From the NCBI GenBank assembly GCA_046563655.1, contig CM102283.1:8618001-8682000 (forward strand): DNA of 64,000 nucleotides, in the 5' to 3' direction. The notes below the pieces were generated by a model that worked only from the letters and a program-made list of their open reading frames with translations, did no database searches and was not told the DNA's origin. The position numbers were made by a program, and so were the translations under genes. Of the stretch, positions 2,737-58,431 are shown piece after piece (position 1 is the first letter of the stretch; each line of letters opens with the position of its first letter). The stretch is from Yuukianura sp. NJ FZ-2021 (taxonomy: Eukaryota).

Positions 2737-4358
2737 ATGGTTTTGCTTAGACTTTTGTGTTCGTTTGTGATTTTTTGGTGTTCATCGGTCAGTGCCGGAA
2801 CGCCGAGCGGTTTATACCAAGATGACGGTGATGGACATACCATCTTGGCTCAAAAATTTACGAAAAGAGACGTTAGGGAGATGTCATTTGACCTGTTGAG
2901 TTTAATGGGATTCGAACAGAGACCGAGGCCACATCTCGTGGAAAGTCGCTCTCCAGCGTCACAGTTTCTGTTTGAAGTGTATGAATCGCTGGCAGAAGGA
3001 GAGGAGCTGATTGGTCTATCCAGAAACAGCGCCGTTAGTCCAATGAATCTGTCTTATTCTAGATTCAATCTCGATTTGGAAGAAATCAAAGCCATTGGAA
3101 AAGCAGATGCTATCGTCAGTTTTCTAAACAAAGGTAACTTCCAATAACTGCAGGAATTATCTAAATGAAAGTAATTATTTAATAATAATAATTAATATAT
3201 ATTTTATGTGGTGTCTTAGGACATCGATATGCATCTCTTCTCAAAGGAGTTGAAGATGAAAAGGCGTTTTGGTTTGACGTGAGCGAACTTTCAGTAGACG
3301 AAACTGTTCTAGGAGCAGAATTGAGAATTTGGAAAAAAGATTTGGGCCCGAAAGCTGCTGGAGACGCTTTTCGAATTTCGGTTTCCGCCATTTTGAAAAA
3401 TCAAGATGGGTAAGTTTCAAAAAACTTGTCAAAATGGCACTGGAATTTAAATGGAAGCTGTGCACAACTCTAAATTGGAAACACGCAGTGGTCTAAAATT
3501 TTAAATTTGTTGTACAGGACATATGCACCGCACGAACTGGACGAAACTGTTGCGACTGCGTGGGAAGAAGGCTGGTTACGCTTGAACGTGACAGAATGTT
3601 TCCGGAAATGGATCCATGACCCCTCATCTAACTTTGGTTTGGTCCTGTCTACGAAGAGAGCTGACAATGGTAAAATTTTGAAATTTTAGGCGCTGAAATT
3701 CAAATTTTGAAGAAATTTTGAAAATTTGTGCAATATAGGTGAGGAAGTGATGATGAAAGCCAGTGGACTGGCGACTGTTTCTGACGTTGAAGAGTATCAG
3801 CCGTTCCTCGTCAGTTTTTTGGTTGGTCACGGTAAAACACGACCGAAAGTTGAACGTCCTCCAAAGCGCCGACGCGTTAGAGTTGCCCGGGAGACGGAAG
3901 GGGGTCGTCGTCGGGGGAGGAAAAGTCGTAAACGCAATGACTTTGAAGACTTGTTTGATCGTCCGAGAAGTTGTCAAATGGGAATGCTGTATGTTAACTT
4001 TGAGGATTTGGGCTGGAAGGACTGGGTCATTGCCCCGGATGGGTTCATCGCTTACTACTGCACTGGAGAATGCTCGTTTCCACTTACAGCAGCTATGGTT
4101 AAAAAAAATTAAGCTCAAAATTTGAATTTTAAGTTTGAATTCTAGAAATTTGACACGGAATTTTTTGGTTTTCAGAATGCAACTAATCATGCCATTGTCT
4201 CTACTTTGGTTCACACTTACTACCCGCAAGAATTCCCGAAACCAGCCTGCGCTCCATTAAAACTCGGTTCAATTTCGATGCTTTACTACGACGACAACTC
4301 GAACGTCACAGTGAAAAAATACAAAGACATGGTCATCAAGTCATGCGGTTGCAAATAA
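2737..4358 (+). CDS. TGF-beta family ligand, BMP5-8/60A (gbb-like) class, 5 exons
   Basis: Exons 2737-3133, 3220-3409, 3518-3669, 3739-4097, 4176-4358, all phase-consistent GT-AG. Signal peptide; prodomain motifs ([27 protein letters not shown]); polybasic furin sites ([10 protein letters not shown]); mature domain [53 protein letters not shown]...CGC. Confidence 0.93.
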
Positions 4359-4656: not shown

Positions 4657-4863
4657 TCAGAGTTGGGCATCACACCCACTTTAGCCACAAACCAGTGTTC
4701 GGCATTCATTTTTTCAGCGCTGGGTAAAATATTTTTTCCACAGTTGGGCATCATCCACTTTAGCCAAACTTTTTCAGCGTTGGGCAGAAAATTTTCTTCA
4801 GAGTTGGGCATCAACCATTTTAGCCAAAACTTTTTCAGCGTTGGGCAAAAAATTTTCTCCAGA
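4657..4863. repeat. ~60-bp minisatellite, ~3 copies
   Basis: Units start with (A/C/G)AGTTGGGCATCA at ~4660, 4741 and 4801; each contains TTTAGCCA and TTTTTCAGCG(T/C)TGGG. Confidence 0.8.
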
Positions 4864-7800
4864 GAATCTTGTCTAAAAAGCGAAGAAGGGCGACAGTCTG
4901 GTTCTTTTGTTCTTTCGGTTTCGGGTGGTTGGTTTTATTCTTTGTGAGTGTCTGGAGAGAAAGTTCGCCTGGAGTCTCTTCTTAATTTCGTTTAATTGAG
5001 GGCATTAGAGGGAGATTTTAATGTTGAGGGGAACTAATCCTCCTTTTGTTAATCTCCGACTCCTTCTGTGCGTGATTTTTCATCCAAAGCGTCTTCTTTT
5101 ACCCTCTCCTCCAAAAGAATCCCAGGAAAATCCCTCCGAACGGCCTCTGAATCCCAACCACCACTTAATTACTCCCGAATAATTAACCAACCAACTACCA
5201 GAACCTTCCTACTCCGTCTTAATATGAACAAGATGAAGGAGAAAATCTTTGGGAGAAGATGAAGGGAGGACAAAGTTCACGTTCTTCCTCCAGAAAAATG
5301 GCCTGGAGATGAGGGCATTTGAGGTCTTAGACTTAGACTTGATTGTGTTTGTCCTGTTTGTGGAAGGAGCTTTGAGCTGTAACTTTGGTGGTCTTAATTT
5401 CTGTAGAATTGGGAGATTTGACAAGAGGGAGTCTATAAAAAGAGAAAGTAAATCATGTTGGAATTGGAGGGAGAGACAAGACGGAGGGTTTTGGAATTTG
5501 TGTACACCGTGGGTACGATAAATCAAGATCTAAAAACCCAACAAAAACTTTTCCGTCTATCGCAACAGAAACACTAAACTGCTCCAAGGACTTTCTCTTT
5601 TCTGGACTGACCAGACAGGAATTTCAGCTTTCACTTCATATTTTGAAAAAAAGGCCAAAAATTTCTGCTTTTTGGTTTGTAGATTTGATTAGGCAAGGGA
5701 GAAAATGAATGCTGGATGGTCGTTGATGCTTTCTTTGACTTTCTCTTTTGAAATTAAGCGAGAGTATCTCCGCGGATTCCACAAAGGTTAGTCTTTGGAG
5801 TGTCATCTAGAAAGTCCATTTCAGTAATTACTGGGCTCTTGTCCTCGTCAAATGATTTGGAAACAAATTTTTTCTTTCATTTTGACCACTAAAGCAAAGG
5901 TCACCAAAGGTCAATCAATACTCACAAAATTCTACTCGCTAAATAACTCAAATGTTTTGAAAAAATGTAAGTATAGGGTGAGAGGGTGCAAGAAGAGATT
6001 TTTTTCCTTCAACCTTGGCACTAGTGACTCGCTTTCTCCTACTTTCACTCTTTTTATGCATGAAGTAGCATAGTTACTCCCTTCATTTTTTGTGAAAAGG
6101 CATAGTTACTCCTTCCATTTTTTGAGAGATTCGTAAAACTCATTTGGCTCGTGGATAATTATGATTAAAATGGTGTTTAGGAATAATTCTTTCCAACTGA
6201 GTTGCTCCTTCTACTAAGGTTTTTTCTGAACATTAAGTTCTAATCCCCGGGAACAGGGGGGCTATGTGGAGTAATGGAGAGAAAGCAGTCAAGAGCTCAG
6301 ATGAACGTTACAACTTTCTCATTTTTTTAAGAGAGGGAACAAGACTTATCTCGATAAAATATGAGACTCACTTATGAATCTTATTAAGATATCATTTTTC
6401 CACTTTCTCTCAACCAACTGTCGTAGCCAACAACACAAAAAAAATCCAATCCAAAAAAATTTTAGAAGGAAATTTTTATTTTGTAAATTTCATAATTTGC
6501 GACCCCAAACTTGTAAAATTGTGAAATCAAAATTTCAATTTTTTCCCCGTCAAATCTTGAGAAGATGTCAAAGATTGGTGGAACGCCAGAGTAACTGAGA
6601 ATGTAATGATAGTACAAAAAGTGATTTTTTTTTGAAAATTTTACAAGGAAGCTACGACATGCAAGATTTGATTTTCCCACCTCCTTAGCTTTTCCTTATT
6701 TTTTTTTCTTCTACAAAGATGAAGACGTTTAAGAAGAGAAAAGAGGCGGAGAAAGTGTGGGATGAGGCCTAAGGTGGCATCATGAACAATTTTTTCCCGC
6801 GCTTTTTTGGCTTGGTTTGTCCTTCACCGTCTTAAGTCGTGAAGGCGAGTGGCATTTGGAAAGATAAAGTCAAATCATACCCAAAATTATTACTTGGAAA
6901 TGTTCATGAAAATGAGTCCAACCCCAAACCTAAGATGAACAAACTTACCACGAGATAATGTGCCAAGGGTTTACTTTCTCCAGCACTTTTTTCTCTCACT
7001 TTCTCTCTTTTTTTAAAAAGTCTCATCTCCTTTCCCGCCTTTCGTTTAATGGACAGAAATCCTAATTGAATTGCTATGCTCAGCTACTAAATCTTCCTTA
7101 TCGAGTCATGGCCCTTCAAACAACGACTTTTTAAGAAAGCCCGCTCACTTTTCCCGCCTCCAACGTCCACCTTATCCCTTAATAACTTTCCATTTTTTCA
7201 GTTTTTCTCATTTTTTCGTTTTTTTTTCAAACTTCGCTCCATACAAAGTACAAAATCATACACGTTTTGCCAAAAAAAAAGAGAAAGCAGCTTTGCTTTC
7301 TCCATCGCTCACTAGAGCATCAGTTTTCAAAAAAAAATCGAAAAAAACGGGATTTTTTTTTGAACAGCACGAGTTTAATTGGCTGAACCTTTTTGAATTC
7401 TAGCGATTCCGCGCCTTTGGCGCGCTATGCAGCCTGGAGCTAAAGATTAAGCTATTGTAGAAGCCCTACTACGTTGAAAGACATTCGTTCTTTTTCTAAA
7501 AAGGATGAATTTTAATATAAAAGGAAAAAGAGTTAAGGAGAGGGCAAATTCAAAAATGAAAAGAAGAGGGAAAATTTGAAATCCGCTTAGGATCTCCATT
7601 TGAACTCTCTTTTCTACTCTTATTTGTCTCTGATTCCTTCGTCCTAATCTGCAACTCCAAACTATTAGCCTTCCTGTTCCTCTCCCTTCCAGAACTTTTT
7701 GGATGTTGATGTCAAGGAAGATCTTTAAGACGGTCTTTTCTAAAACCAAATTGGACTTTCCATAGGAACAGAAACCTAACCAAAATCCGGCACAAAATGG

Positions 7801-8368: not shown

Positions 8369-11300
8369 CTAGATAGCCATTTTGAGTCTTTTGGACTTTG
8401 CTCGTCTGTTTTTGAACCAAAATTGGACATTTTTGGGTTCTAATTTTGGAAATTTTTGTCTGTAGGGCATTCTATTGAGCTCTTCAGTGTATTTTAGAAT
8501 TAGTGCATGTGAAGGGTGGGTGTTTAGAGAAAACCAAGCTTCTAGTCGTGGAACTTCACTCACAGGGTCAATGAACGTTCGATTTCGCTTTCTCCTTTCA
8601 TCCAACGATGACCCCGTGACCTCTTCCTGTCTTTTGGCCAAAAGTGTTGAAATAAGTTCTTCTGATCCAGAATTTTGCTGCAGAGCGGGAAAAAGATCTT
8701 GGCGATGAGAGTAACCAGCAGAGTGAAAGTCAAAGGAAAGTCGTTTGTGGGCCGAGGGGGGTTCAAGGGCCTGGTGAGTAGCAAAGGGAAAGGCGTTGAG
8801 ATGATGACTGTAGGCCATGAAAGAGTGGTGGTCAATGATTGGTGGAAAGCGGGTGAGGATTTGGTGGTGGTGGGTAGCGTGGGAAAATTCAAAATTTTGG
8901 CGGGGAGAGAGCGGGGGTGAACTGCGGGGTGAAAGTGCAGAGCAACTGGAATCGTCATCCCCCACAGACAACTCGGCTTCTTCTTGCTCCACTTTTGGTT
9001 TTTGCATTTCCAGGCTTAAGTTTCTGGGTTCACTTTCACCTGAAATGCAAAAATTTCAATTTTTCGAAATTTTTGAGAAAGTGAAAGTTTTTACCTTCAT
9101 GAACTTCTACATCGACTGAAGTAGAATCGTCTTCTTCTTCCTTGATTTTGATTGGTGGATTTCCTTCTTTAGTGGAACTGGTACTAGGTGAAATGTTTTC
9201 GTCTTGAGAATCTCCTTGTCCGTTATGATTCAACCTGTGTGAGTTGTTATTCGGATCACCTTGGCCATTTGATTGTCTTGGTGGGGTGGGGAGTGAAAAT
9301 TGTGGGTGGGGAGAAAGTCCATTATAGCGCAACTCGTTTCGTTTTTGAGCTGCGCGGGCATTTTTGAACCAGTAGATTACGTTGTTGATGTCCAGAGGTT
9401 TGCGGTCTTTGCGACATTCCAGGGCGTTCAACTCTCTAACATAATGCTGGATCTACAAAACCAAAAAAAATTGAAAAAAAAATTTTTTTTTTGAAATTTT
9501 GAAAATTTTGACTTTCACCTGATGCCTCGACGGATGTGGATTTTCGGCAAACCAGTCTTGGAGTCTGGGCAGCTCCATTTCGGGATCAAACGAGGTGCGC
9601 ATGCGCGTTTTCTGGTGCGGTGAGATTCCTTGGTACACTGGATGATTTTCCGGATCAGATCCAGCAGTGGACTTGTGATGCTGATGCTGATGCTGGTGCA
9701 TATGAGAGATAGTAGTGGGAATACTGGGGGGTTGGTCAGAGGTCATTGACCCTCTGAAGCGAGGTCATTGACCCTTGACCTCCCTGATTCTCTTGAGAGA
9801 GTGAATTCAACAAGGAAGTTAGTGTATGCGTGTGTTGAGCGGAGTACCACAAGTCGAATCTTCTCCTGAGCTCTTCCGCTCCACTCCCTCCCTCTTTGCA
9901 TGTCACCTGGAAATAAGTTTTTCCAAAAATAAATCCCGCCAGTTTTTGAAAATCTTTTGAAAATGGATCTTGTGAAGAAGAAGGAATTAAAAGTGGAGTG
10001 TTTGGGATGATAATGAGGAGTCTTTTGAAGAGATTAAGAATTAAAAATCCTCCTTCCGTCATCCTCTCCTTGCGTCTTCAGTCTATTCAGAGGGAGATTT
10101 TGAAAAGTGGGGGTACAAGAATAGTCTAACTTTGGAATTTGTCTCAACGTGTTGTTCTGAACAGACTCACCTGAGCCGCCATCTTCTCAGGGGAGGATTA
10201 AAAGAGCGGGAAAACAGGATGTTTTTGAAATTCTTTTGAGAAAGAAAGTAGTATTTATCGGAGCGAAAGTTTCAACTCATCCTGTTCTTTCGGGTTTGAT
10301 TTGGGGTGACGCAAGTTCATTTTTAGACAAAGATTTTGAATTTACGGGAGATCGAATTTGAATTTACGGAAGATTAAATTAGAATTTTAAAGTTTTCAAA
10401 AAAGTTGAAAAAATTTACCTGTCCGAGCGACGGTGCTGTTCCGGAAGATTGAGCTAGCAGCAGACGCAAAAGCTTTTCCTTGAGATCTTCTGGAGCTGGT
10501 GGACATTTTGTTCTGTTCAAACAAAAACAAAGTAAAATTTTCAAAATTTAGAAAAACTTTTTTTTTAAATTTCAAAATTCAAAACACATTGTTGTTCTGT
10601 AATGACCTGGTTATGAGAATCGTTAGAGTTGCATGATTGGTCAGATCGTGAAGGATGTCACCCACTGTGTTCTGTGTTGAATCGGAAACTTGATCTAGTC
10701 TTAGCGGTTTCCAGTTTCTAAGTGAAATCCAACCTAAAATTGCAAAAAATCAAGAATTTTTTTTAAAAAAGACGCAAATTTTTGAAATTTTGTATTTTCC
10801 TTTTACCTTCTGCTTGTGGAAGTGTTTCTTTGGAGTGACCTAGAAGTGACAATGCCGTTGGCAAGAGGTCATTGAATGGCGTAGCGGCGGGAACAATAAG
10901 GTAGTCGTCAATGTCCGCAACAAGGTTGTTGCTTTCACTTGACCCGCCTTGAGCTGAATTTGAATTTTGAGTTTCTCCCGCCACCGGACTTTCTCTCGTT
11001 TTGAGCAGACAGTGCACCGGAATAGCTGCTTTCCCTCCTACAAAGAAAACAGGCAAGGAATGCCTCAATTGAAACTGGTTTAGATTAAGATAAGAAGTTC
11101 ATTAGGATAGTTTTGGGAGATAAGTTGGGATAGTTGCGATAAGGAGCCACCAGGAGGTGACACTTTTCCAATTGGCAACTGTTGATTCACCATACCAAGA
11201 GAGGCCATTTCCTTTAGTTCTTTTCAAATAAGAGAGAGGATCGCAGTTTCAAATCTGGCTGTTCCCAAACCGTCCATCAAAGGAACTGAACTTAACTTAG

Positions 11301-29489: not shown

Positions 29490-31518
29490 ATGTAAGTTAA
29501 ACTTACGAAAATTACATTTATGGAAATGATTTGCTTTTGGTTTTGTTGACCGTTGATTATGGTTTTTCATTTCAGGCCTTTTTTGCATGAAGGAAGTCCT
29601 GCAGGAAATTTCGCAACAGCTCTCAGCCTTGCCGACCTCAAAAATGTAATTGGAGCAGCATCTCAGCAGCGCAGTGTCCAGAAAATCCTTCCGCGTGATC
29701 CACAGAGGAAGTCGTCTTCTGTGTCAGTGATGGGGACGAAGATGATGGGCAACGGATCTCCTAGTAGTGCAGCTCTCGCTGTCGCAGCCATGAATAACTT
29801 TCAGAGTCCGGGAGAACGGGATGCCTCGTACGTCGCATCCAGAAGAGCCAGGAGCAATAATTTCACATTGAAGGAAACGTTTGACCTCCTCAAGGTAACA
29901 CAGAGTTCTCCAAGTTCATATTCAGCCAGTATGTATCGTTCCTGAAATGATAGACATTGTACTTGGGCGTTTTAGGTTTGGGCGAGTCCAGAAATGCAGT
30001 GGCAAATGAAGCACAACTTTCGGAACTTTCGTGTTTGGTACGTTTTGAAACTGAAAAGTCTGATTCCAGCATTTGGCATCGTGCCGTTTACGGTTTTACT
30101 TTACGGTATTTTGTTTACAGGGAAGCCATTTCGTATTCAATGTCTGAATTGGGGCATGATCGGACTGCTATTCAATGCAAAAACAGAATTCAGAACCTCA
30201 CCTCTATTTTCTACCGGATCAAAAAATCGAAGCAGGATTACCGATCTTTTAACTTCCCATACTTCAAGCTGATTGGCGATGTACTTGAGGGGAAGAAACA
30301 GGGGTCTAGCCTGGGTTCACTCGGTAAGCTATTAACTCAATTACTAATTAACAATTAGTTTATATTAATCCTCTGTTCGACTGATCAATTGGTTTTTCTT
30401 GCAGGATTACATGCACCATCCGTAAATGCCTACGGACAAGGCCTAAATCCAGCTGACTTCCAAGGATCAAATGACAGTCCTCCGCAAGCTCCAGGGTAAA
30501 AACACAACTGCTACAATTTTAGTAGATGATTCCACAACATCATAACATTTGTAACATTACTATTTGTAGATTCGCTGCGGCAGCTCACATGGCTCTGGTT
30601 GAAGAGTATCAGCATTTAATTAACGGACAACCCGAGGCTTACGCTCTGCCACCACCTTCGTCACCGCAAAATAACGATCACATGAGCGTTCTCTCACCGG
30701 AAGTCTCTCTATCTGAAGGAAACTCGCCAATTCGGGTCGAGAATCAAGGTTTTAAAACGAGCTTAAAACTTTTTTACTTTAACTTTTTTTTAAACTAATT
30801 TATCGTTTCATGACAGTTTACTAGACTTAGATTTCATTCCTAGGTCATTTTCTTGTAGGCGGCTCAGGAACTGGACTTCGAAATGGAGCTCACCATGCAA
30901 AAGAAGATGACGAACGAATGGATGACGAAGAAGGAGCATCTGAATTTGACGAGCAACTACAAGACGAGGACGAAACTTCTGAGTAAACTTAAATCTCAAA
31001 CTACTTTTGCCACTAATCGTTTCAAATCTTTTGTTAAATCAATTAATTGACTCCTTTTTGTCTCACATAGTCCTCCTGAATCTGTTTCCAGAAGTCGAAA
31101 GCGTCCATATCCTCAGAGTTACTCTCGAGGATTTCCTCCGAAGAGGCCACGGGGACATTCTGGGGGCAGTGGGGACGGTAGCCTTGGTGATCCCGTGTCT
31201 CAATACTTAGCAGAAATGGTTGAGATAGAACGTGGATGGCTGGAAATGGAACGAGAACGGGCCGAAAATGAGCGACAGATGATGATGTACATGATGCAGA
31301 TTCTGCAAGCTCTTGTGTCACCTCAAGGTCAAGGTCAAGAGGAAGAGTCTGAAGCTGAAGAAAGTACTCCACCTCCACCACAACCCAAATCTACTAAAGA
31401 GGAAAATGGACGACGAAGTGGAGATGAAGGGGCGGGAGACTTGAAAGAAGTTGTAAAAGAAGAGGACTTACAAGAAGAACCTCCCAAAATTGAAGAAAAT
31501 GGAGACACCAGCGATTAA
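29490..31518 (+). CDS. Myb/SANT-like trihelix DNA-binding protein (MSANTD-like) with C-terminal coiled coil
   Basis: Spliced RRARSNNFTLKETFDLLK|VWASPEMQWQMKHNFRNFRVW|EAISYSMSELGHDRTAIQCKNRIQNL...FPYFKLIGDVL matches the trihelix pattern. Acidic linker, then ERGWLEMERERAENERQMMM coiled coil. The start is uncertain (candidate ATG split by an intron). Confidence 0.8.
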
Positions 31519-32777: not shown

Positions 32778-35700
32778 TTATGCAGAAATTTCTTGGTCTC
32801 TTGAATTACTTTGTTGTTGTTGGGGTTGAACTGAGTTTTGTTGTGTGATTCCACCGTTCGTCGTTCGTTGACTATTCGTGTTGTTTTTGTGTTGCTTCCG
32901 AATGAGGTGCTTGACCCATTGACCTTGCGGTTCGTCCGCTCTGCGTCGTCTTTGGTAAAAGAGAATGTAGGCAGCAGACGTTTTGATTTCGTCTGTCGAT
33001 CCCAGTTCTCTCACTCGAGTATCATCAAAGGCCCACCATGTCTTCTCCACTGGGTTCCGGCAAAAGGCTGTCATTATCAACCAAAAGTAATTAGAATCGT
33101 GATTAATCCACACAAAGTTAATCAACACCTTAATTAGTCAACTATCCTTATGAATGTAGAGTGTGTACCTGTGTAGTGTCCTCCTTGTAAGTCCTTTCCG
33201 TGGTGGTTGCAGACAGCGAAGAGGTCGTACTGCAGATTTTCGTCGTCATGGAAGCCATTGATTTTGGGCAGTTGAGTAGGCAGTGGTTTCCGGAAGGAGG
33301 CCCTCTGCCTCCACCCCCCGAAAGAATTGTTCTTGACCTTGGGGGGTTCAGCGGTGCTAGATTGCTGGAGTTGGGCTTCGGCTCGATTCCGCTTAGAAAC
33401 GTGTGGAGCCAGGTCAAGCGGAGTTTCCAGTGGAAAGTCCACCAGAGACGAAACTTTACTCACTGAACCGCGAGCACCCTGAAAAAAAAACAAGTTTTTC
33501 AAATTTTCATTCACAAATTTTCACAATTTAAAAAAAAAAGTTTCAATCAAGATCCATACCTGTCTAAATCTCTTGAGATGGAGGACGAGTATTTGTGGAG
33601 CCGTGTGAAGGCCGATAATTTTGAGCGTTCCCTCTTCCTTTCGATTGCAATGGGGGCAGTGATAGCTGTTAAAATTAAGATTAAGTTAATTAAGTTAAGG
33701 TTAAGATTAAGTTAATTAACAAATCATTTGAATTTAACTTACGAGTTGTCTCCTCTCAACTCCTCAGCGCCAGTGTACAAGTCAAAGCACTCTTTCAGGT
33801 CAACTGAAACTTCGCGTTGGGCTGAATGCCTCTCTCGTGTTTCGCCAAGACTCAAATGCTCTTCGACCATTTCAGACTCATCGGCTATAATTCTGCAAAA
33901 TAAGAAATTCAAAGTAATTGGTTATGCACGACGGTAATCGATTACTAAGAAAATCAAAAAATATAAACAGCTTACTCTTCTTTGGACTCTGGTTTCCATT
34001 CAAGAAGTAGCTTGACATGTGGAAAGATTCCACCAGTGCATAGAGTTAGTGCTTCTTCAATTGCTTCTGTGAAGAGAGGATGCTGGACGGATGGGTCTAG
34101 CAACGTTCCCTCGGCAGTGCCATCGACAATCCGAATTCCAAAAACTCCCGCCTAAAAATTCAAAAAAAAGTCAAAATCTGTTCTTGATCGTGTCAATTGA
34201 GGTCATCCAAACTTCACCTTTTGGTCAGACACGAGAACTCCTGGTTTCAGAATCGTAGCCATCTCTTTGAGCAGAAGTTTCTGGAGGTCGACGTATGCCG
34301 TTTCTCGACTCAATTGAGAAACGTAAGGACTACCAAATCGGACTCTTGTTTCTTCTGCTACGAGTACATTTGCCCATAGGACAACAAGTGACTCTTCTGT
34401 ACTCTCAGGCATCTCTAGGGCATAAAGTGACTCGTTCCGCGTAACAGCTGATAGGGGCTGTCCATCTAATGGTTTTACAAAAATTAAGAAATTCATTCAC
34501 TATTTTTTGGGGCACTGTGAGAAAAATTTACCAGTGAACGTTCTGTGAAATCCTTCTCCATCAATTTCAAGTAGCAGCATTTCCTTGATCCCAGTGTCGG
34601 TGACCAGAGCAGTCGTCAGATCTTTGACGTCTCCGGTTGACGGAAGACTAAGGCCCAGCTTTACCTAAACAACAGAAGTTAGCTTTTAGTCTGAAGTAAA
34701 AACTGATTAGCATATTCTTATGCTAATTATTAGCATATTTATAATGCTAAACTTCAGTTTTGGTTGCTTACCAAGCGAGGTTGCTGACTGAGGAACATAA
34801 CATGAACATAAATTGGTAACTCTTCCTTAATTTCAGGAATTGGGAGTGAGACGGTTAAAAATGGTTCAAACGTTGCACTTTGGCGACCACAACCTGGACA
34901 GGTCAACGAAGATCTGAACTGGGCTCCGAAAATTTCTTGAATTACAGAATGATTAGCACGACTCCACTCTTCTGCCGCTTCTGCAGCAGCTTCTTCTTCA
35001 CTCACACCAGTTTTCTTCTAAAACAAACAAACATGAAAGATTGAAACGTTTTGAAATCGTTTTGTTTTAAAATGTACCGCATGTTTCGTTACCTTGCTTT
35101 GTTTTCCTTTCGAAGACGATTGATTCAAATCTTCATGGAGTCTGTCCAGCATCCAGAGTAAAAACTCTTGGGCGTCGTGTTCTTCAGAACCTTTTAACAA
35201 AAACATGTTAATAAATCAAGTAGCACTGATTCATTTATAAGGATTTAGATCTCAACTGACCTCTCCATTGAGGACAGCCCCTGTCAATCGCTGTTTTAAA
35301 CTTTACAGCCACTTCTTCACTTGAATTCAGTCGTAGCCAGGCGTTTTTCAGAATCGAGGCAAACTCCTCCGTAACTTCGCCCTAAGAAATATTGAACGAT
35401 AAAATAACATCATTGAAGGTCATGAAGAACTTGTTGATTAATCGTTAGTCGTTAATCGCCAACCTTTCCCTTCTTGGTCCATAGTTTCCTGCGGAGATGT
35501 CTTTTGTAGGCATCCGTGACAAGGAATTTCGCCAAAGCGTCTGTATGACTGAGGCACTGTACAATGGAATTCATGTAGCAAGTGTTCCCCTGATTCTTGA
35601 GGCCCACGGCTGCTGGAAGAAGGTCACCTAGAAGCAAAACAATCAAAACACATTAGTTAATTTGTTAAGATTAAAGTTAATTAAGAATAATTAACCAATT

Positions 35701-49924: not shown

Positions 49925-52181
49925 CTACAGAACAACAAATCGTGCAACGATTGCTGTAAACATTGTGACCATGGCGGATGACAAGCTGCTCCGAATAGCA
50001 ACATCACCAGACCACTGTGGATTGTAAACCTGTTCAACCATTGCTTTCAATTTGTCACAATGTGACCGATCAGCAGAGTTGTAGCTGACTTGATCACAAA
50101 TAATTTCATTAACGCAGTTAATGTCTGGACAAGGCGCACCGTTGTCGTCGTTGTTGCTCTTCCGGTAAATGTTTCGGTACTCTTCAAACAGCGTTTTGTC
50201 CTCGATCATGCGCAGTGTGAGGTTGTAGTAGTCGGCAGGTCGGTGGGCAGTGAGGTTGAACTTTTGTGATGCCGAGTACTCCAAGAACCAATCAGGTCGG
50301 TTGCCATCCATGTGTGATGCGGTGATGTTCAACATCCAAGTTTCATGGTCGATGAGTTCCCAGGTTGATTCTTCGCCACGCTTTCCGTCAACGTAGTATA
50401 CTTTGTATCCTATAAAAATCAAAATTTTAGATTTTTTTTTCAAAATTTCCAAACACTTTGTCACCAAATCACGACTTACCAATACCAGCTCCCTTGTCAG
50501 GTACGGCAGACGGACCGCAAAATCCAACTGAAACTGGTCGTTCGGCTTCTAAAATTTCAAAATTAAACTAAAAAAAAACTTAAATAAAATGAAAAGAGCA
50601 TCTAGTTTCGACATTCCAGCTTACGTGTAATGTCGCTGTCCATAGTGACAACATGGAATTCGTTGTGCACATGACCATACACTTGAAACGTGATGATATG
50701 AGCATATCTGTCGATAATTCTGTACATTTGATGACTGTAGTGTGGCCAACAGGCTCCACTTCCCGGCGGAATGTGCATCACCAGCAGTACTTTCTCATTG
50801 GCTGCTTCAGCCTCTGCCATTGTCTTGCTAAACCAATCCAGTTGTCCAAATGGATCCCGGGCTTCATATGGTAACCAGAAGTTCTGGATGTAGCAAATGT
50901 TGGAATTGAGAATGACAAAACGGAGTCCAGGTTCGGGAGAGACAGTGTAGAATCCACCACGGTTGAAGCGATACAACTCTTCGTCAGAACCAAAGTACTG
51001 CTGAAACGGATCGCTCATGGCCATGTACATCCAAGTCAGGGAAAACTCTTCTTCAGTGACTGAAGGTGGTGGGTACATGTTGACAGTCGGAGTTTCATGG
51101 TTGCCAGTGACGACGATAACTGGAATTCCTGGAAAGTGGGTGGCCAGAGTCTGCGTGACGGTGGAAATGACTCGTTCGTTTTCTTGTCGATTGTACAGCC
51201 ACACTCCAGAGTGGATGTAGTCTCCAGTGAGCAGAATGTATCTCACGTCCTGAAATTTCGCAACCGTTTAGCATTACTAATATGTTATATAAAACATGTG
51301 ATATAAAACGTGACATTCACAGAGCGCGAAATTCAAATTTGAAATTACACGATGCATGCCCTTTGCATGTTCAAACATCTCGACCAATCCGTCATATGGT
51401 AGGCCACATCGTCCATGCCCATACTTGCCAGCGGGTTCAACTCCTTCCGGCGCAGGTCCATTCATGTCACGACAACAAATTGGATACACGCATTCCGTAC
51501 TCGTTCCAACTTTGTAGTCCAAGTCAACATGTAGATCCGTAAAGTGAAGAATTTTACTTCCTTCCCTTCTTCCAACATTGGCCTAAAATTCGAAAAAGTA
51601 CTTGAAATTTTTGACATTTTTTAATTTCATTCACTATTTTATGTAAGTTTTGAAATTCTTACCGGAAGCGGAGGTGGTTCGACATACTCCGGCTTTCCTT
51701 CGGCTACATTCGTTGACCAGCTGTAGTACTCTGGATCGATTGTTCCACAATCTTCGTTGATGAATCCACAAAAGTCGTCGTTGGACATTTCTGGATCATT
51801 GAGGATCATGTAGGCAATGGGTGTGACGTAGCCTTGAATAGTTGCATAACAAATGTCGTCCGATGGAGCCAAATTTAAAATCATACATACTCTGGCAATG
51901 GCTCTGGTAAGTTCTTCTTCAGCCTCTGGTCCACCATTTTCTAACATTGGTCTAGCAAGCGTAAGCGCTGGATGGCAGACACTACATGTCAAGTATTCAG
52001 CTCTTGTTGATGGTCCGTCCACGGCTAGTGCATACGCCCAGTCCTTGATTTCGTCACGGTATGGACGGATCTTCTCGATAAATTCGTCCGTTAATTGGTC
52101 AATTTCCTCCCGACTTAACTTCCCCTGGCAAGAGACTACTATGCACAGTAATAGCCATGCGCAAAAGAACCTTGCCGCCAT
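49925..52181 (-). CDS. Acid sphingomyelinase-like phosphodiesterase (saposin B + metallophosphoesterase), copy A, 5 exons
   Basis: Signal peptide; saposin cysteines (CSVC...C...C...C...C); HFTDLHVD, ICCR, LLTGD, GNHE, MHIPP, YGHVH; hydrophobic C-terminus. Exons ~52181-51663, 51582-51349, 51249-50625, 50548-50480, 50409-49925. Confidence 0.9.
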
Positions 52182-52565: not shown

Positions 52566-54844
52566 CTACTGAACAACTAATCGTGTAACGAAAACTGTAA
52601 ACATTGTGATCATGGCGGAAGACAAGCTGCTCCGAATGGCGATATCACCAGACTGCGGATTGTAAACCTCTTCAACCATTGCATTCAATTTGTCACACTG
52701 TGATTGATCGGCAGAGTTGTAGCTGACTTGAAAACAAATAAGTTCCTTAACGCAGTTAATGTCTGGACAAGGGGCGCCGTAGTCGTCGTTGTTGCTCTTC
52801 CGGTGAATATTTCGGTACTCTTCAAACAACTCCTTGTCTTCGATCATGCGCAGTGTGAGGTTGTAGTAGTCGGCTGGTCGGTGGGCAGTGAGGTTGAACT
52901 TTTGTGATGCCGAGTACTCCAAGAACCAATCAGGCCGATTGCCATCCATGTGTGATGCGGTGTTGTTCAACATCCAAGTTTCGTGGTCGATGAGTTCCCA
53001 GGTCGATTCTTCGCCACGCTTTCCGTCGACATAGTATACTTTGTATCCTAGAAAAAATCAAAATTTTAGATATTTTTTTCAAAATTTCAACGCATTTGTC
53101 ACCAACTCGCGACTTACCAATACCGGCTCCCTCAGGTACGGCCGAGGGCCCAGAAAATCCAACAGAAACTGGTCGTTCGGGTTCTAAAATTTCAAAATAA
53201 AAATCAAAAAGTTAAATTGAATTAAAAAAAGAGAATCAATTTTCGACATTCCAACTTACGAGTAGTGTCGCTGTCCAAAGTGACAATATGGAATTCATTG
53301 TGCATGTGACCATACACTTGAAACGTGATGATGTGAGCATATCTGTCGATAATTCTGTACATTTGATGACTGTAGTGTGGCCAACAGGCTGGACTTCCAG
53401 GAGCAATGTGCATCGTCAACAGCACTTTCTCATTGGCTGCTTCTGCCGCTGCCATTGTCTTGCTAAACCAATCCAGCTGATCAAATGGATCCCGGGCGTC
53501 GTATGGTAGCCAAAAGTTCTGGCTGTAGCAAATGTTTGAGTTGAGAACGACAAATCGTAGTCCAGGTTCTGGCGAGACGGAGTAGAATCCACCACGGTTG
53601 AACCGAAACAACTCTTCGTCGGAACCAAAGTACTGTTTAAACGGATCGCTCATGGCCCGGTACATCCAAGTCAGGGAAAATTCTGATCCAGTGACTGAAG
53701 GTGGTGGGTACATGTTGACAGGTGCTGCTTCATGGTTGCCAGTGACAACGATAACTGGAATTCCTGGAAAATGGTCGGCCAGAGCCTGTGTGACGCTGGA
53801 AATGACTCGTTCGTTTTCTTGTGGAGTGTACAGCCACATTCCATTGTGGATGTAGTCTCCAGTGAGCAGAATGTATCTCACATCCTGAAATTTCTCAACT
53901 GTTTAATCATGTGACATAATATGTGATATATAACATGTGGTTTGTGGTATAAAACATGTGACATTTGTAGAAAGCGGGAAATTGAAATTTGAAACTTACG
54001 CGATGCATGCCCTTTGCATGTTCAAACATCTCGACCAATCCGTCATATGGTAGGCCACAGCCAGTGTGTCCATACTTGCCAGCAGGTTCAACTCCTACCG
54101 GCGCAGGTCCATTCGTGTCACGACAACAAATTGGATACACGCATTCCGTACTCGTTCCAACTTTGTAGTCCAAGTCAACATGGATATCCGTAAAGTGAAG
54201 GATTGTAGCTGCTTCTTTCCTTCCTATATTGGCCTAAAATTCACAAAAAAAATACTTGAAATTTTTGAATTTTGAGAATTTAGTCTATTTTATGTAATTT
54301 TTGAAAATCTTACCGGAAGTGGAGGTGGTTCAACATACACCGGTTTTCCTCCAGCTACATCCGTTGACCAGCTGTAGTACTCTTCACCCATCGTTCCACA
54401 ACTTCCGTCGACGAATCCACAAAAGTCGTCATTGGACATTTCTGGATTATTGAGGAGCATGTACGCCATGGGTGTCACGAAGTTTTTGATAGTTGGATAA
54501 CACATGTCGTCCGCTGGAGCCAAATTTAACATTGTACATACTCGGGTAATAGCTGTAGTCAGTTCTTCTTCGGCCTCTGGATTACCACTTTCCAACATTG
54601 CTCTACCAAGGTTTAGTGCTAGATGACAAAGGTTGCATGTCGGTGTCAAGGATACAGCTCTAGTTGTACTTGCTGGCCTGTCAAAGGCTAGTGAATACGC
54701 CCAGTTCTTGATTTCTTCACGGTATGGACGGATCTTCTCGGTAAATTCATCCGTTAATTGGTCAATTTCCTGACGACTTAACTTCCCCTGGCAAGAGACT
54801 ACTATGCACAGCAGTAGCCATGCGTAAGAAAACCTTGCCGCCAT
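52566..54844 (-). CDS. Acid sphingomyelinase-like phosphodiesterase, copy B (tandem paralog)
   Basis: Same 5-exon structure and high identity to copy A (HFTDIHVD, LLTGD, GNHE, MHIAP, YGHMH), with a hydrophobic C-tail. Confidence 0.9.
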
Positions 54845-55286: not shown

Positions 55287-58200
55287 TCATGACACAGCTG
55301 AACCTGGTTGTGTCGTTTTATCTTTCTGCCATTTAAGTTGATGTACTGCCGGTATTTTTCCACCAACCTTGTTTTCACCAATACTTCCTCCAGGATGGTA
55401 GTGGATGCAACTGGAGTCAACGCAATTGACTCCATATCGACACGGTTTCGGATGATAGAAGACGCAATCCACTGTACTGCATTTGGGAAAGAAGTGACAC
55501 AACTTCTTGTTCGGAGCCGCTGGGGCATAGTGAGATACCGGTGGTTTGTAAGTCGTCTGGCCATAGGTGTCCGGTCCGTCATGTTTGTATGGACAACTTG
55601 GTCTTTTTGCGCAACCGCTGCCAAACTTACATTTTGGATGAGTAAACTTGCAGTTGTCGCCGAATGAACATGTTGGCCAGAACTTGCACAGGGTTGACGG
55701 AGCCACAGGAGCGGTGTGTTCTGGCAGCATTCCTGGGAGACTATCGTAGAAGTACGGTGTAGTAAAATAGGATGGTACAATTGACCGGATCGGATAGGCG
55801 GGTGCTGGAGGAGGGGGAGGACGAATTGGCTGGACTTGGAGTGGCTGATACGACGCTGTATTCGTCCTTGTAATCGCTGCAAGTTTTGCCCTAAGGTCCG
55901 TCAATCTGTCTGGTTTTTCTTCAACGGTTCTGCAAAAAGCAAAGGTTGAACTTAAAATTCTCAAAATTTTGAAAAATTGGAACTCACTTTTTCTCTTCCT
56001 CTTTTTCTTCATTGTTAGCCTCAGCTTCCTCATTGTGCTGCTGCTGCGGTGGCAGGAGGTCGTCAATATCATTGTCCTGGTTTACAGTAACTTCCAGCTC
56101 AGCTTCACTTTCGCTTTGTTCCACCACAACTTTCCGTTCATTTTCTTCATCAGAATCCGATTCGTCGCTGGAATTCATTACTTGAATTGAAATCCGGTTT
56201 GGAGCGACATAACCCTTGCCTGTCTTCCAATTGGCCGATTTAGTTGGAACAGAAGATATGTCGCTTGTTTCCTCGGCCAATTTCGGTGAAGCTTCGATTC
56301 TCTTCGCTGAAATCACAATCAAAAGGTCAATCGTAGCACAAATTAGAAATTAAAGTGTTTACCTTTGTCATCTTTTGGATTACTGAGGTTTCCAACGCCA
56401 AGGTTGGGCACATTGATAATAATGTTGAGGTCATTTTCAATGTCACGCAGTTCATTCAAGTAAGCTTCGTCCATTAAGTCCTCGTCCACGTCTAGTTTAG
56501 AATCACGTCTACCGTGATGCCTCTCCTGCGAAACTTGCTTTTCACCCAGCCGATCCTTCATACTCATTCGACCTCTTTTGGTAAAAAGTTGAAGCGGAGA
56601 TTTTGATCTTGATCGTGACCTGGACTTGTTACGCTTGACAGCATTCCGCTCTCGTTCTCTGTCACGTGACGAGTCTCTCCTGACACGGCTCCTGTAACTT
56701 CCGTCACGGTCACGGTCTCTTCCAGAATGATCTCGAGATCGTCTACGGTCACGGTCACGACTTCTACTTCGGTTGGAACGAGGAGACCGCGCTATTCTCC
56801 AACTTTTACTGCGATTACGATCGATTTCCCAGTCGTAATCCCGGCTTTTCCGCCTTCCAGCTCCGCCATCGTCACTTGATTTTGTAGGTCGCTTGATGTT
56901 GTCAATTTCAACTTCCTTCATGGCCTTCATTATTAACTTGGAATTCATGCTGGTGGTGTCTCGTTTCGGCCGTTTATCATCCGTGACACAGACGACGCTG
57001 GACAGTTTGTGGATTCTGGGTTTCTCTGGATCGTACTCTTCTGATGAAGGTTTGCTAACGGCAGAAACGACTGAACGAAGTTTCTTTGGTGGGGGATCCT
57101 GTTCAACGGGTTTTGATGTATCGGATTTTGAATGTGAAGAATGAGAAGTGGAGTCCTTATCCTTGCTTTCCGCTTCATCACTTTGGCGTTTCCGTTTGTT
57201 ACTGTTTTCTTTTTCAAAATTCAATACCATTCCACGGAGAGCCGTTACGTTACCGGAACCAAGTTTTCTTCTTGATGACTTCCCGTCTTGTGCTATTTTG
57301 TGAAGTCCTTCCACATCGGACTCTTCAACGGCCGCGGTGGCTTCCATTTCTGGAGCAAGATTTGCTGAAGCATCTTCTACATCTTCACCGAATAAATCGT
57401 CACCGTCGTCTTCTCCAAGGTTGAGTATGTCCTTGTCTTCTTTCTCTTGTGCGGAGTCGTTGTGTCCACCCTCATCTTGGTGACCAGTCGGAGTATCCTT
57501 GGACTCTGACACCTCTGTTCCACTGAAAAACGCAATCAGAACGTTATTTTGACGTAAAATGGAACATTTGAGTTGGAGAAGAAAAACTTACGTTTTGTCG
57601 GATTTTCGTCCAGCAGCTTCGGCCTGTTTGCGATCAAACTCCGTTTTGTTGACAAGATTATTTTTGAGTTTGAACTGTACTTTTCCATCGCTAACTTTTT
57701 CGGATGATTTGCTTGATGATGAGGTACTCCCGGACTTGCTAAGTTTCTTGTCCTTTTCACTGTGATCATCCTTCTTCTGGTGTTTGTCTGAAGTTGGTGC
57801 AGATTTTGCCGATGTTGAAGTCTTGGATGAAGAACTCTTGGACGTTTTCCCCGGACTTTTCGACGTTTTTGATTCCTCGCTCTTTCCAGATGAACCTTTC
57901 ACACTATCCTTGTCTTTTCCCGACGATTTTGAAGATGTATCAGAAACTTTTGTATGTTTGTCCTTATCGTGACTGCTTTTGCTTTCTTTTGCCTTGCTCG
58001 TCTGGGCTGCACTTGATGTCTCTGCTGCTGGTTTCTCTTTGCTTAGTACTGCAATTGAGTCGGCCAGGGTCACCTGCTCCAATTTCTTTAGTACATGAAA
58101 CAACCAGGTTGTAAATTTCTGTGTGTTTTCCGATAAGAACAACTCCAAGTCACTCTCCATTTGGGGTTTCGAACGTCGATTGGCAACGAGTACCATTATA

Positions 58201-58431
58201 TAATCTGGCAGTTCATCATCTATAGAATTCAAACATGTTAAGCAATCCATGTAAGACATGAGGACTTCTTGTTTGCATTGAAACTTACCAACATGCACTC
58301 CTAATTCCAAGAGTTTGGCCTTAATTGCAGACTAGAACAAAACAATGATAAAATTCAGACTTCAGTTCAACAGTACTGCCGAGATAGAGTGACCAACTCA
58401 CCCTGACTTTTAAGCTGACTTCAATCTCCAT
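55287..58431 (-). CDS. ZC3H14: Zinc finger CCCH protein 14 / Nab2 ortholog (poly(A)-binding)
   Basis: N-terminal PWI-like region SAIKAKLLELG..DDELPDYIMVLVANRRSKPQMESDLELFL...FTTWL; EYDPEKP motif; RS/RD-rich middle; C-terminal tandem CCCH fingers followed by QLKW. Confidence 0.88.

Follow-up and report, generated by a model that had tools for sequence, protein, structure and literature searches.

A Gbb/BMP5-8-class ligand gene of the springtail clade that lacks the interchain cysteine

Ligands with and without the interchain cysteine

A covalent bond between the two subunits is usually held to be a hallmark of the bone morphogenetic proteins (BMPs), and ligands that lack the cysteine responsible for it are treated as rare exceptions with a special biology, such as subunit exchange or latent or regulated activity. 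The subject of this report is a gene of the BMP5-8/Gbb class without this cysteine. It lies in a 64,000-nucleotide stretch of Yuukianura sp. NJ FZ-2021 (contig CM102283.1), which is referred to as the window; all positions are given in the numbering of the window.

Drosophila Gbb and the vertebrate proteins BMP5, 6, 7 and 8 resemble the window gene in having a signal-like N-terminus, a propeptide, a multibasic site and a knot of six cysteines. The N-A-T sequon that precedes the wrist helix is conserved in Gbb and BMP5-8 and is common to the window gene. The springtail ligand differs from these proteins in the absence of the interchain cysteine, in 24 fixed substitutions, in a charge of -1 and in an extra sequon in finger 2. 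Drosophila Screw (Scw) is also derived from BMP5-8 and, like the springtail ligand, has diverged strongly from the class consensus. Scw keeps the interchain cysteine. Furthermore, it coexists with a canonical gbb, whereas no such companion is seen for springtails among the best 120 of 345 matches.

Ligands that lack the cysteine are known from other parts of the TGF-beta superfamily. GDF9, BMP15, GDF3 and Lefty belong to other subfamilies, which are restricted to vertebrates and have specialised roles in the oocyte or embryo. Lefty, too, is without the fourth cysteine and is non-covalent. The sequence similarity of GDF9 and BMP15 to the springtail ligand is far below that of BMP6 and BMP7. In one paper, GDF9 and BMP15 are described as lacking the fourth cysteine and as forming non-covalent dimers (PMC9282257); serine replaces it there, as it does in 16 springtail sequences. 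A second paper deals with TIG-2/BMP and TIG-3 of C. elegans, a 'rare subset' of ligands in which the dimerisation cysteine is absent and lysine stands in its place. They are modelled as non-covalent homo- and heterodimers and are functional in vivo, and it is added there that heterodimers of GDF9 and BMP15 can form by subunit exchange (PMC11210861). As described in that text, TIG-2 is an ecdysozoan BMP-class ligand without the dimerisation cysteine, as are the springtail proteins, but TIG-2 and TIG-3 carry lysine at the site where springtails have serine or alanine.

The missing interchain cysteine

The absence of the cysteine in springtails is clade-wide and anciently fixed. It is a known kind of variant, that of the TGF-beta ligands which lack this cysteine and are presumably non-covalent. 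Two positions of the window gene are relevant here:

3972..3974, + strand: C325, the first cystine-knot cysteine and the start of the 102-residue knot domain (3972-4097 plus 4176-4355)
4245..4247, + strand: Ala390 (GCC), the position of the interchain ('fourth') cysteine, located by translation and by the alignment with BMP6

The codon at 4245-4247 is GCC, the local reading is P-K-P-A-C-A-P, and the alignment with BMP6 sets 'pkpAcap' over 'PKPCCAP'. The region from the first knot cysteine to the end of the protein is 102 residues long and contains exactly six cysteines, C325, C354, C358, C391, C423 and C425, each of them in a column that is cysteine in all 100 other rows of the alignment. Thus an initial annotation of this DNA, which had reported PKPACAP with alanine encoded by GCC at 4245-4247 and only the six cysteines of the knot, read the sequence correctly. 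The interchain column is cysteine in 88 of the 100 non-springtail rows of the BMP5-8 class, so that the site is not a variable one from which it could be absent by chance. No other cysteine that could take over the interchain role is found in the mature region. The only prodomain cysteine outside the signal-like stretch, in the motif 'NVTEC', is absent from four aligned orthologues.

The site is covered by 17 springtail-clade sequences, 16 with serine and one, that of the window, with alanine; none has cysteine. The motif PKPSC occurs in 15 of 15 relatives among the longer proteins and in one match from a search of short proteins, and the short exon-level search for a cysteine-bearing variant, or for more springtails, gave a single candidate, with serine. 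The residue on which the canonical covalent BMP dimer depends is therefore Ala390 in the window and serine in 16 of 16 relatives, and the gene has the same lack of a dimerisation cysteine as the non-covalent ligands GDF9, BMP15, GDF3, Lefty, TIG-2 and TIG-3. Because the absence is clade-wide, the loss predates the split of the sampled springtail lineages.

A reading of this change as a peculiarity of one gene copy does not survive the finding that 17 of 17 springtail-clade sequences are without the cysteine. A clade lacking it, which the initial annotation had counted as evidence against its own interpretation, is present in the databases in the form of these 17 springtail sequences, although no paper saying so was found. 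The alanine of the window is probably one base away from a serine codon (TCC to GCC), and a path from cysteine TGC through serine TCC to alanine GCC would proceed in single steps, to judge from the proteins of the relatives. The argument that two substitutions separate TGC from GCC is moot, because the relatives carry serine. The accompanying claim that a single sequencing error is unlikely holds for the absence of cysteine, which is clade-wide, but not for alanine as opposed to serine, a difference that could come from a one-base error or from a polymorphism.

Gene structure and class

The gene encodes a TGF-beta preproprotein of 426 residues in five exons on the + strand, in an open frame with one terminal stop. 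Each of its introns is bordered by GT..AG and measures 69-108 bases, and the protein can be aligned end to end with those of Folsomia, Orchesella and Allacma. The parts of the gene are as follows, with expectation values (E) for the Pfam domains:

2737..3133, + strand: exon 1, with the ATG, the signal-like N-terminus and the first part of the TGF-beta propeptide; donor GTAACT; Pfam TGFb_propeptide, E 2.2e-11
2737-2799, + strand: hydrophobic signal-like stretch, about residues 1-21, read from the sequence and not by a prediction tool
3220..3409, + strand: exon 2, propeptide; acceptor TCTTAG, donor GTAAGT; Pfam TGFb_propeptide, E 1.9e-08
3518..3669, + strand: exon 3, propeptide; acceptor GTACAG, donor GTAAAA; Pfam TGFb_propeptide, E 5.8e-08
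3739..4097, + strand: exon 4, with the end of the propeptide, the multibasic region and residues 1-42 of the knot domain, which hold knot cysteines 1-3; acceptor ATATAG, donor GTTAAA; Pfam TGF_beta, E 3.5e-12
3906..3935, + strand: multibasic stretch of 10 residues (303-312), a likely proprotein-convertase site, read from the sequence
4176..4358, + strand: exon 5, with the wrist helix, finger 2, knot cysteines 5-7 and the stop codon TAA (4356-4358); acceptor TTTTCAG; Pfam TGF_beta, E 4.2e-17; BMP6, E 6e-24

Exon 5 encodes the C-terminal 60 residues of the TGF-beta domain, followed directly by the TAA. A stretch rich in lysine and arginine is found at the place equivalent to residues 303-312 in all aligned springtail orthologues, and these residues are likely to be a proprotein-convertase site from which the mature peptide would begin at N313. 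In an unnamed relative, P0231, the match to exon 4 is followed directly after ...TAAM by unrelated residues, a read-through into the intron. As this occurs after the same residue, the position of the intron between exons 4 and 5 is common to P0231 and the window gene. A tandem repeat with a 60-base unit (4710-4864, + strand; 2.6 copies, 87% matches, nested 24-base period) lies about 350 bases 3' of the stop codon, in the 3' flank or untranslated region of the gene.

The Pfam families PF00688 (TGFb_propeptide) on exons 1-3 and PF00019 (TGF_beta) on exons 4-5 all score above their curated cut-offs. Together with the spacing of the six cysteines and the multibasic site, they mark the gene as a TGF-beta superfamily ligand. 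Exon 5 aligns without gaps to BMP6 (HMMER, E 6e-24), then to BMP7 (2e-22) and far more weakly to BMP2 (1.6e-16). When the springtail mature domain P0304 was compared with solved structures, the subfamilies scored 156 bits for BMP6, 152 for BMP7, 125 for BMP2, 109 for GDF5 and 98 for BMP9. No chain of GDF9 or BMP15 is found among the structure matches of either exon 5 or P0304. The closest named database proteins, from arthropods and other animals, are called 'protein 60A' or 'BMP7/5'. By its sequence, then, the gene is a ligand of the BMP5-8/Gbb class, nearer to BMP5-8 and Gbb than to BMP2/4/Dpp, GDF5-7 or BMP9/10. The Pfam domains and the best structure matches, BMP6 and BMP7, agree with the class originally proposed for it. 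Since the gene sits inside the BMP5-8 class, its loss of the cysteine is independent of that in GDF9, BMP15, GDF3 and Lefty, as had also been proposed.

Springtail relatives and phylogeny

The closest proteins are springtail 'BMP7' sequences, those of Folsomia, Orchesella and Allacma as well as unnamed ones. A search with exon 5 among longer proteins gave 15 hits out of 17 candidates, with identities of 87-97%. Among the relatives are 'bone morphogenetic protein 7 [Folsomia candida]' and proteins without a name from Orchesella dallaii and Allacma fusca, three named species that span two orders, Entomobryomorpha and Symphypleona. The description of the gene as an arthropod BMP is borne out, its nearest relatives being Collembola. 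A nematode origin, to which the shortness of the introns and the TTTTCAG acceptors had pointed, is rejected on the strength of these springtail matches. The closest of all is the unnamed protein P0004, in which 329 of 417 residues are identical to the window protein. The prodomains of the window protein and P0004 are 49-52% identical to those of the three named species, compared to 62-69% among the named species themselves, and by this measure the window lineage is the deepest one sampled.

The tree was calculated in a quick IQ-TREE run from 102 BMP5-8-class rows and 426 columns, with the column of the interchain trait removed; 14 vertebrate rows and 14 rows with an identity of 95% or more to a retained row had been left out beforehand. 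The 16 springtail-clade rows, including the window, form one group with a support of 100 in the Shimodaira-Hasegawa-like approximate likelihood ratio test (SH-aLRT), and the window pairs with P0004, also with a support of 100. The stem of the clade hangs from an unresolved base. The interchain cysteine trait has changed at least eight times on the tree, and well-supported branches make five of these changes unavoidable. The springtail clade stands apart from the sequences of clade I nematodes, which have phenylalanine or tyrosine at the site. On the basis of these clade I sequences, TIG-2 being outside the sequence set, the springtail loss appears to be independent of the nematode loss.

Constraint on the mature domain

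Among the 16 springtail rows 88 of the 102 positions of the knot domain are invariant. The window gene is 91-94% identical to the named springtails in the mature domain and 49-52% in the prodomain; for all springtail sequences the corresponding ranges are 91-98% and 49-76%. A conserved mature domain combined with a variable prodomain points to purifying selection on a working ligand and not to a decaying copy.

Model of the dimer

A model with two copies was made of the mature part (residues 70-184) of P0012, a relative that carries serine at the interchain site. Its score is 0.69, and the best of three controls reached 0.07. Three runs agree in at least 97% of the contacts, and the predicted local distance difference test (pLDDT) value of the partner is at least 84. 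Residues 147-151 of P0012, the serine included, are part of the modelled interface. The mark set for the score had been calibrated on solved structures. For microbes it was reached by 21 of 30 proteins whose structure is a pair of one and the same chain and by none of 23 whose structure is a single chain, and for eukaryotes by 17 of 29 pairs (7 of 16 for animals) and none of 30 single chains. Eukaryotic pairs without an older solved relative reached it in only 1 of 7 cases.

How the springtail ligand may function

The gene is probably a functional Gbb/BMP5-8 orthologue of a springtail, or of a very close relative, that signals as a non-covalent dimer. It would be an intact and strongly constrained orthologue of Gbb (protein 60A) and BMP5-8, in which the interchain cysteine was replaced by serine in the common ancestor of the sampled springtails and serine by alanine in the window lineage. 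Synthesis, cleavage at the multibasic site and secretion of the proprotein most likely follow the usual course. The mature ligand most likely takes the shape of the usual BMP butterfly dimer, held by the hydrophobic interface of wrist helix and fingers alone. Signalling may then proceed through non-covalent homodimers, or through heterodimers with Dpp, a ligand of the BMP2/4 type, in the manner of GDF9/BMP15 and TIG-2. Secretion, cleavage, non-covalent dimerisation and signalling are steps that we infer, and so is the status of the gene as the only one of the BMP5-8 class. The last point comes from a word-indexed protein search with the Folsomia mature domain as query, in which the best 120 of 345 matches, down to 49% identity, include one match each for Folsomia candida, Orchesella dallaii and Allacma fusca and no second, canonical BMP5-8 in these three annotated springtail proteomes.

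Several observations weigh against this interpretation, and so does the fact that its sole-gene status depends on the best 120 of 345 matches of a protein search. Between the springtail mature domain and other BMP5-8 proteins the identity is 61-69% (median 66%), whereas the non-springtail rows, from cnidarians to vertebrates, have a median of 83% among themselves, and a copepod and an amphioxus domain still agree in 87%. Only 3 of the 100 non-springtail rows are as isolated as the springtail rows, and the stem of the clade has a length of 1.96 changes per column. Furthermore, 24 positions of the knot domain are fixed in springtails to residues that are rare or absent elsewhere. Two of the changed sites lie in the wrist helix and in finger 2:

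4200..4202, + strand: Ser375 (TCT), in the wrist helix; serine in 16 of 16 springtail rows, glutamine in 100 of 100 others
4302..4310, + strand: N409-V-T411, an N-glycosylation sequon in finger 2, present in all 16 springtail rows and in none of the 100 others; its use is presumed

The fixed changes include Q375S (Gln in 100 of 100 other rows), V401M (Val in 100 of 100), L412V (Leu in 99 of 100) and the replacement of valine by isoleucine at 420 (Val in 97 of 100), with further changes in the loop before the helix. The N-V-T sequon results from the replacement of isoleucine by threonine at 411. Three basic residues near the first cysteine are replaced, and the net charge is -1 compared to a median of +3, with an isoelectric point of about 6.3 compared to 8.5. 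Of the 24 fixed substitutions 6 fall among the 31 modelled interface residues, compared to 25 of the 78 remaining positions, which is no enrichment (Fisher p = 0.62) and gives no indication that the lost disulfide has been compensated. The model of P0012 may itself echo the solved BMP dimers, and it is evidence of likeness, not of binding. Other BMP5-8 proteins without the cysteine, for example those of Trichuris and the copepod-like P0024, are still 86-94% identical to canonical ones, and the loss of the cysteine alone therefore does not entail a divergence like that of the springtails.

The long stem, the fixed changes, the drop in charge and the new sequon would also fit a changed role, in which the ligand serves only as a partner or acts as a modulator or antagonist. 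A fast-evolved paralogue of this sort, comparable to fly Scw, would exist beside a canonical gbb that bears the cysteine, and would be an exchangeable partner, modulator or antagonist. Substitutions at otherwise invariant sites, among them sites in the pre-helix loop and the wrist helix, are also in favor of such a paralogue, as is the fall of the mature-domain identity from the usual value of about 83%. We nevertheless regard it as unlikely. A canonical copy, at about 66% identity, would be expected among the best 120 of the 345 matches, yet each species appears there once. A second search used a springtail profile, and among the best 150 of its 3233 hits the proteins directly after the springtail clade are, where named, those of spider, wasp, copepod and barnacle. 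In addition, tblastn with five proteins against the 64-kb window detected the gene itself but no further TGF-beta domain, all other matches having an E of at least 0.37. This evidence against a paralogue is absence from protein sets and is weak. The divergent duplicate, modulator or antagonist of the initial annotation has gained no positive support. A monomer, or a weak dimer that dissociates, with reduced or inhibitory activity and occupying receptors without assembling the full complex, would be in keeping with the missing interchain cysteine and with clade-fixed changes that are not concentrated in the interface. It is, however, a very improbable state of affairs, because the hydrophobic interface residues of the wrist helix and fingers are kept, the score of the two-copy model is well separated from its controls, and known members of the family without the cysteine still dimerise. 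An error of sequencing or assembly, or a pseudogene, deserves hardly any credence. One base could, it is presumed, account for alanine in place of serine, but as an account of the absent cysteine an error is refuted by the 17 springtail-clade sequences, which come from independent sources. The open frame, the canonical splice sites and the invariance of 88 of the 102 knot positions across the clade also speak against it. A functional orthologue acting as a non-covalent dimer thus remains the preferred interpretation.

Loss of the cysteine elsewhere in the class

The interchain cysteine is missing from 12 of 114 non-springtail proteins that were fetched. The profile search covered 1.84 billion representatives, and the best 150 of its 3233 hits consist of 124 with the cysteine, 23 complete domains without it (2 of them springtail) and 3 that are truncated. 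Thus 21 of the 145 non-springtail representative clusters that cover the site, or 14%, lack the cysteine. The groups affected include spider mites, some spiders, a barnacle, a copepod lineage, a tardigrade, clade I nematodes, pteriomorph bivalves and a nemertodermatid. The residues that replace it across invertebrates are S, G, L, Q, K, N, R, Y, F and I, in the following cases among others:

Tetranychus urticae: Asn
Parasteatoda tepidariorum and the near-identical P0083: Gln
Uloborus: Arg
Trichuris muris and T. suis: Phe
Soboliphyme: Tyr
Tegillarca, Mizuhopecten and P0107: Gly
P0082: Gly
P0024: Ser
Pollicipes (barnacle): Ser
Paramacrobiotus (tardigrade): Leu
Panonychus and Brevipalpus (mites): Ser and Leu, respectively
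A dolichopodid fly, '60A-like' protein: Leu
Meara stichopi (nemertodermatid), Bmp5-8: Gln

The proteins without the cysteine include P0023, P0024, P0066, P0067, P0070, P0082-P0084, P0086 and P0104, and also P0107, P0111, P0164, P0168, P0178, P0181, P0187 and P0240. The clade nearest to the springtails in score is large, unnamed and cysteine-bearing, and includes calanoid copepods. Within it, one copepod-like cluster has serine in 8 of 8 members, and the mature domain of its representative is 94% identical to that of P0021, a canonical relative from the copepod clade. Additional gene copies or errors of prediction may account for some of the invertebrate cases.

These counts suggest that loss of the interchain cysteine is far from unique among invertebrate BMP5-8 proteins and commoner than the searched literature implies. 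The paper on TIG-2 calls such ligands rare, but 21 of 145 clusters suggest otherwise within invertebrate BMP5-8. The accessible part of a paper on scallops describes seven conserved cysteines and is silent on the glycine in the scallop BMP5-8-like protein (PMC10763453), and in the accessible parts of two others Folsomia is mentioned for Sog and Tsg only (PMC8051952, PMC13232752). Nothing on a springtail gbb was found in a literature search that covered few subscription journals.

Implications

The basic picture of the family is unchanged. It may be of interest to specialists that an otherwise extremely conserved ligand has been remodelled and that invertebrates have lost the cysteine in parallel. 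A hexapod class with a constrained Gbb that has been without the disulfide since before its orders split is a natural experiment on the role of this bond. It could show whether heterodimers of Dpp and Gbb, which are central to arthropod dorsoventral patterning, work without it. A wider proposal can be put forward tentatively, with more doubt than confidence. Springtails would run on a single, remodelled BMP5-8/Gbb that is non-covalent, acidic and equipped with an extra glycan site in finger 2. About 24 substitutions in a burst on the stem, some of them at sites that are otherwise constant from cnidarians to vertebrates, would have produced this form, and it would then have been frozen across the deepest sampled splits. 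The interchain disulfide would then be a dispensable and not a defining feature of these ligands, dropped repeatedly in invertebrates. If this is true, receptors, partners or antagonists should have evolved along with the ligand, and the Dpp-Gbb heterodimers might exchange subunits.

Other features of the window

The rest of the window contains several further coding regions. The homeobox gene, on the opposite strand from the BMP gene, lies some 4 kb downstream of it, and each of the two tandem copies of the phosphodiesterase gene consists of two adjacent open frames.

8372-9055, - strand, perhaps extending to 9452: homeobox gene with a C-terminal homeodomain (Pfam PF00046, E 1.2e-08)
29954-30355, + strand: open frame with a Myb/SANT-like DNA-binding domain (E 1.6e-08)
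33137-33520, - strand: fragment of a ubiquitin carboxyl-terminal hydrolase (E 5.6e-08)
49928-51267 and 52569-53902, both - strand: two tandem copies of a gene with Metallophos and ASMase_C domains (acid-sphingomyelinase-like phosphodiesterase)
55290-58331, - strand: ZC3H14/Nab2-like gene with long open frames, a Nab2-type CCCH zinc finger (E 2.1e-14) and a sub-threshold PWI match

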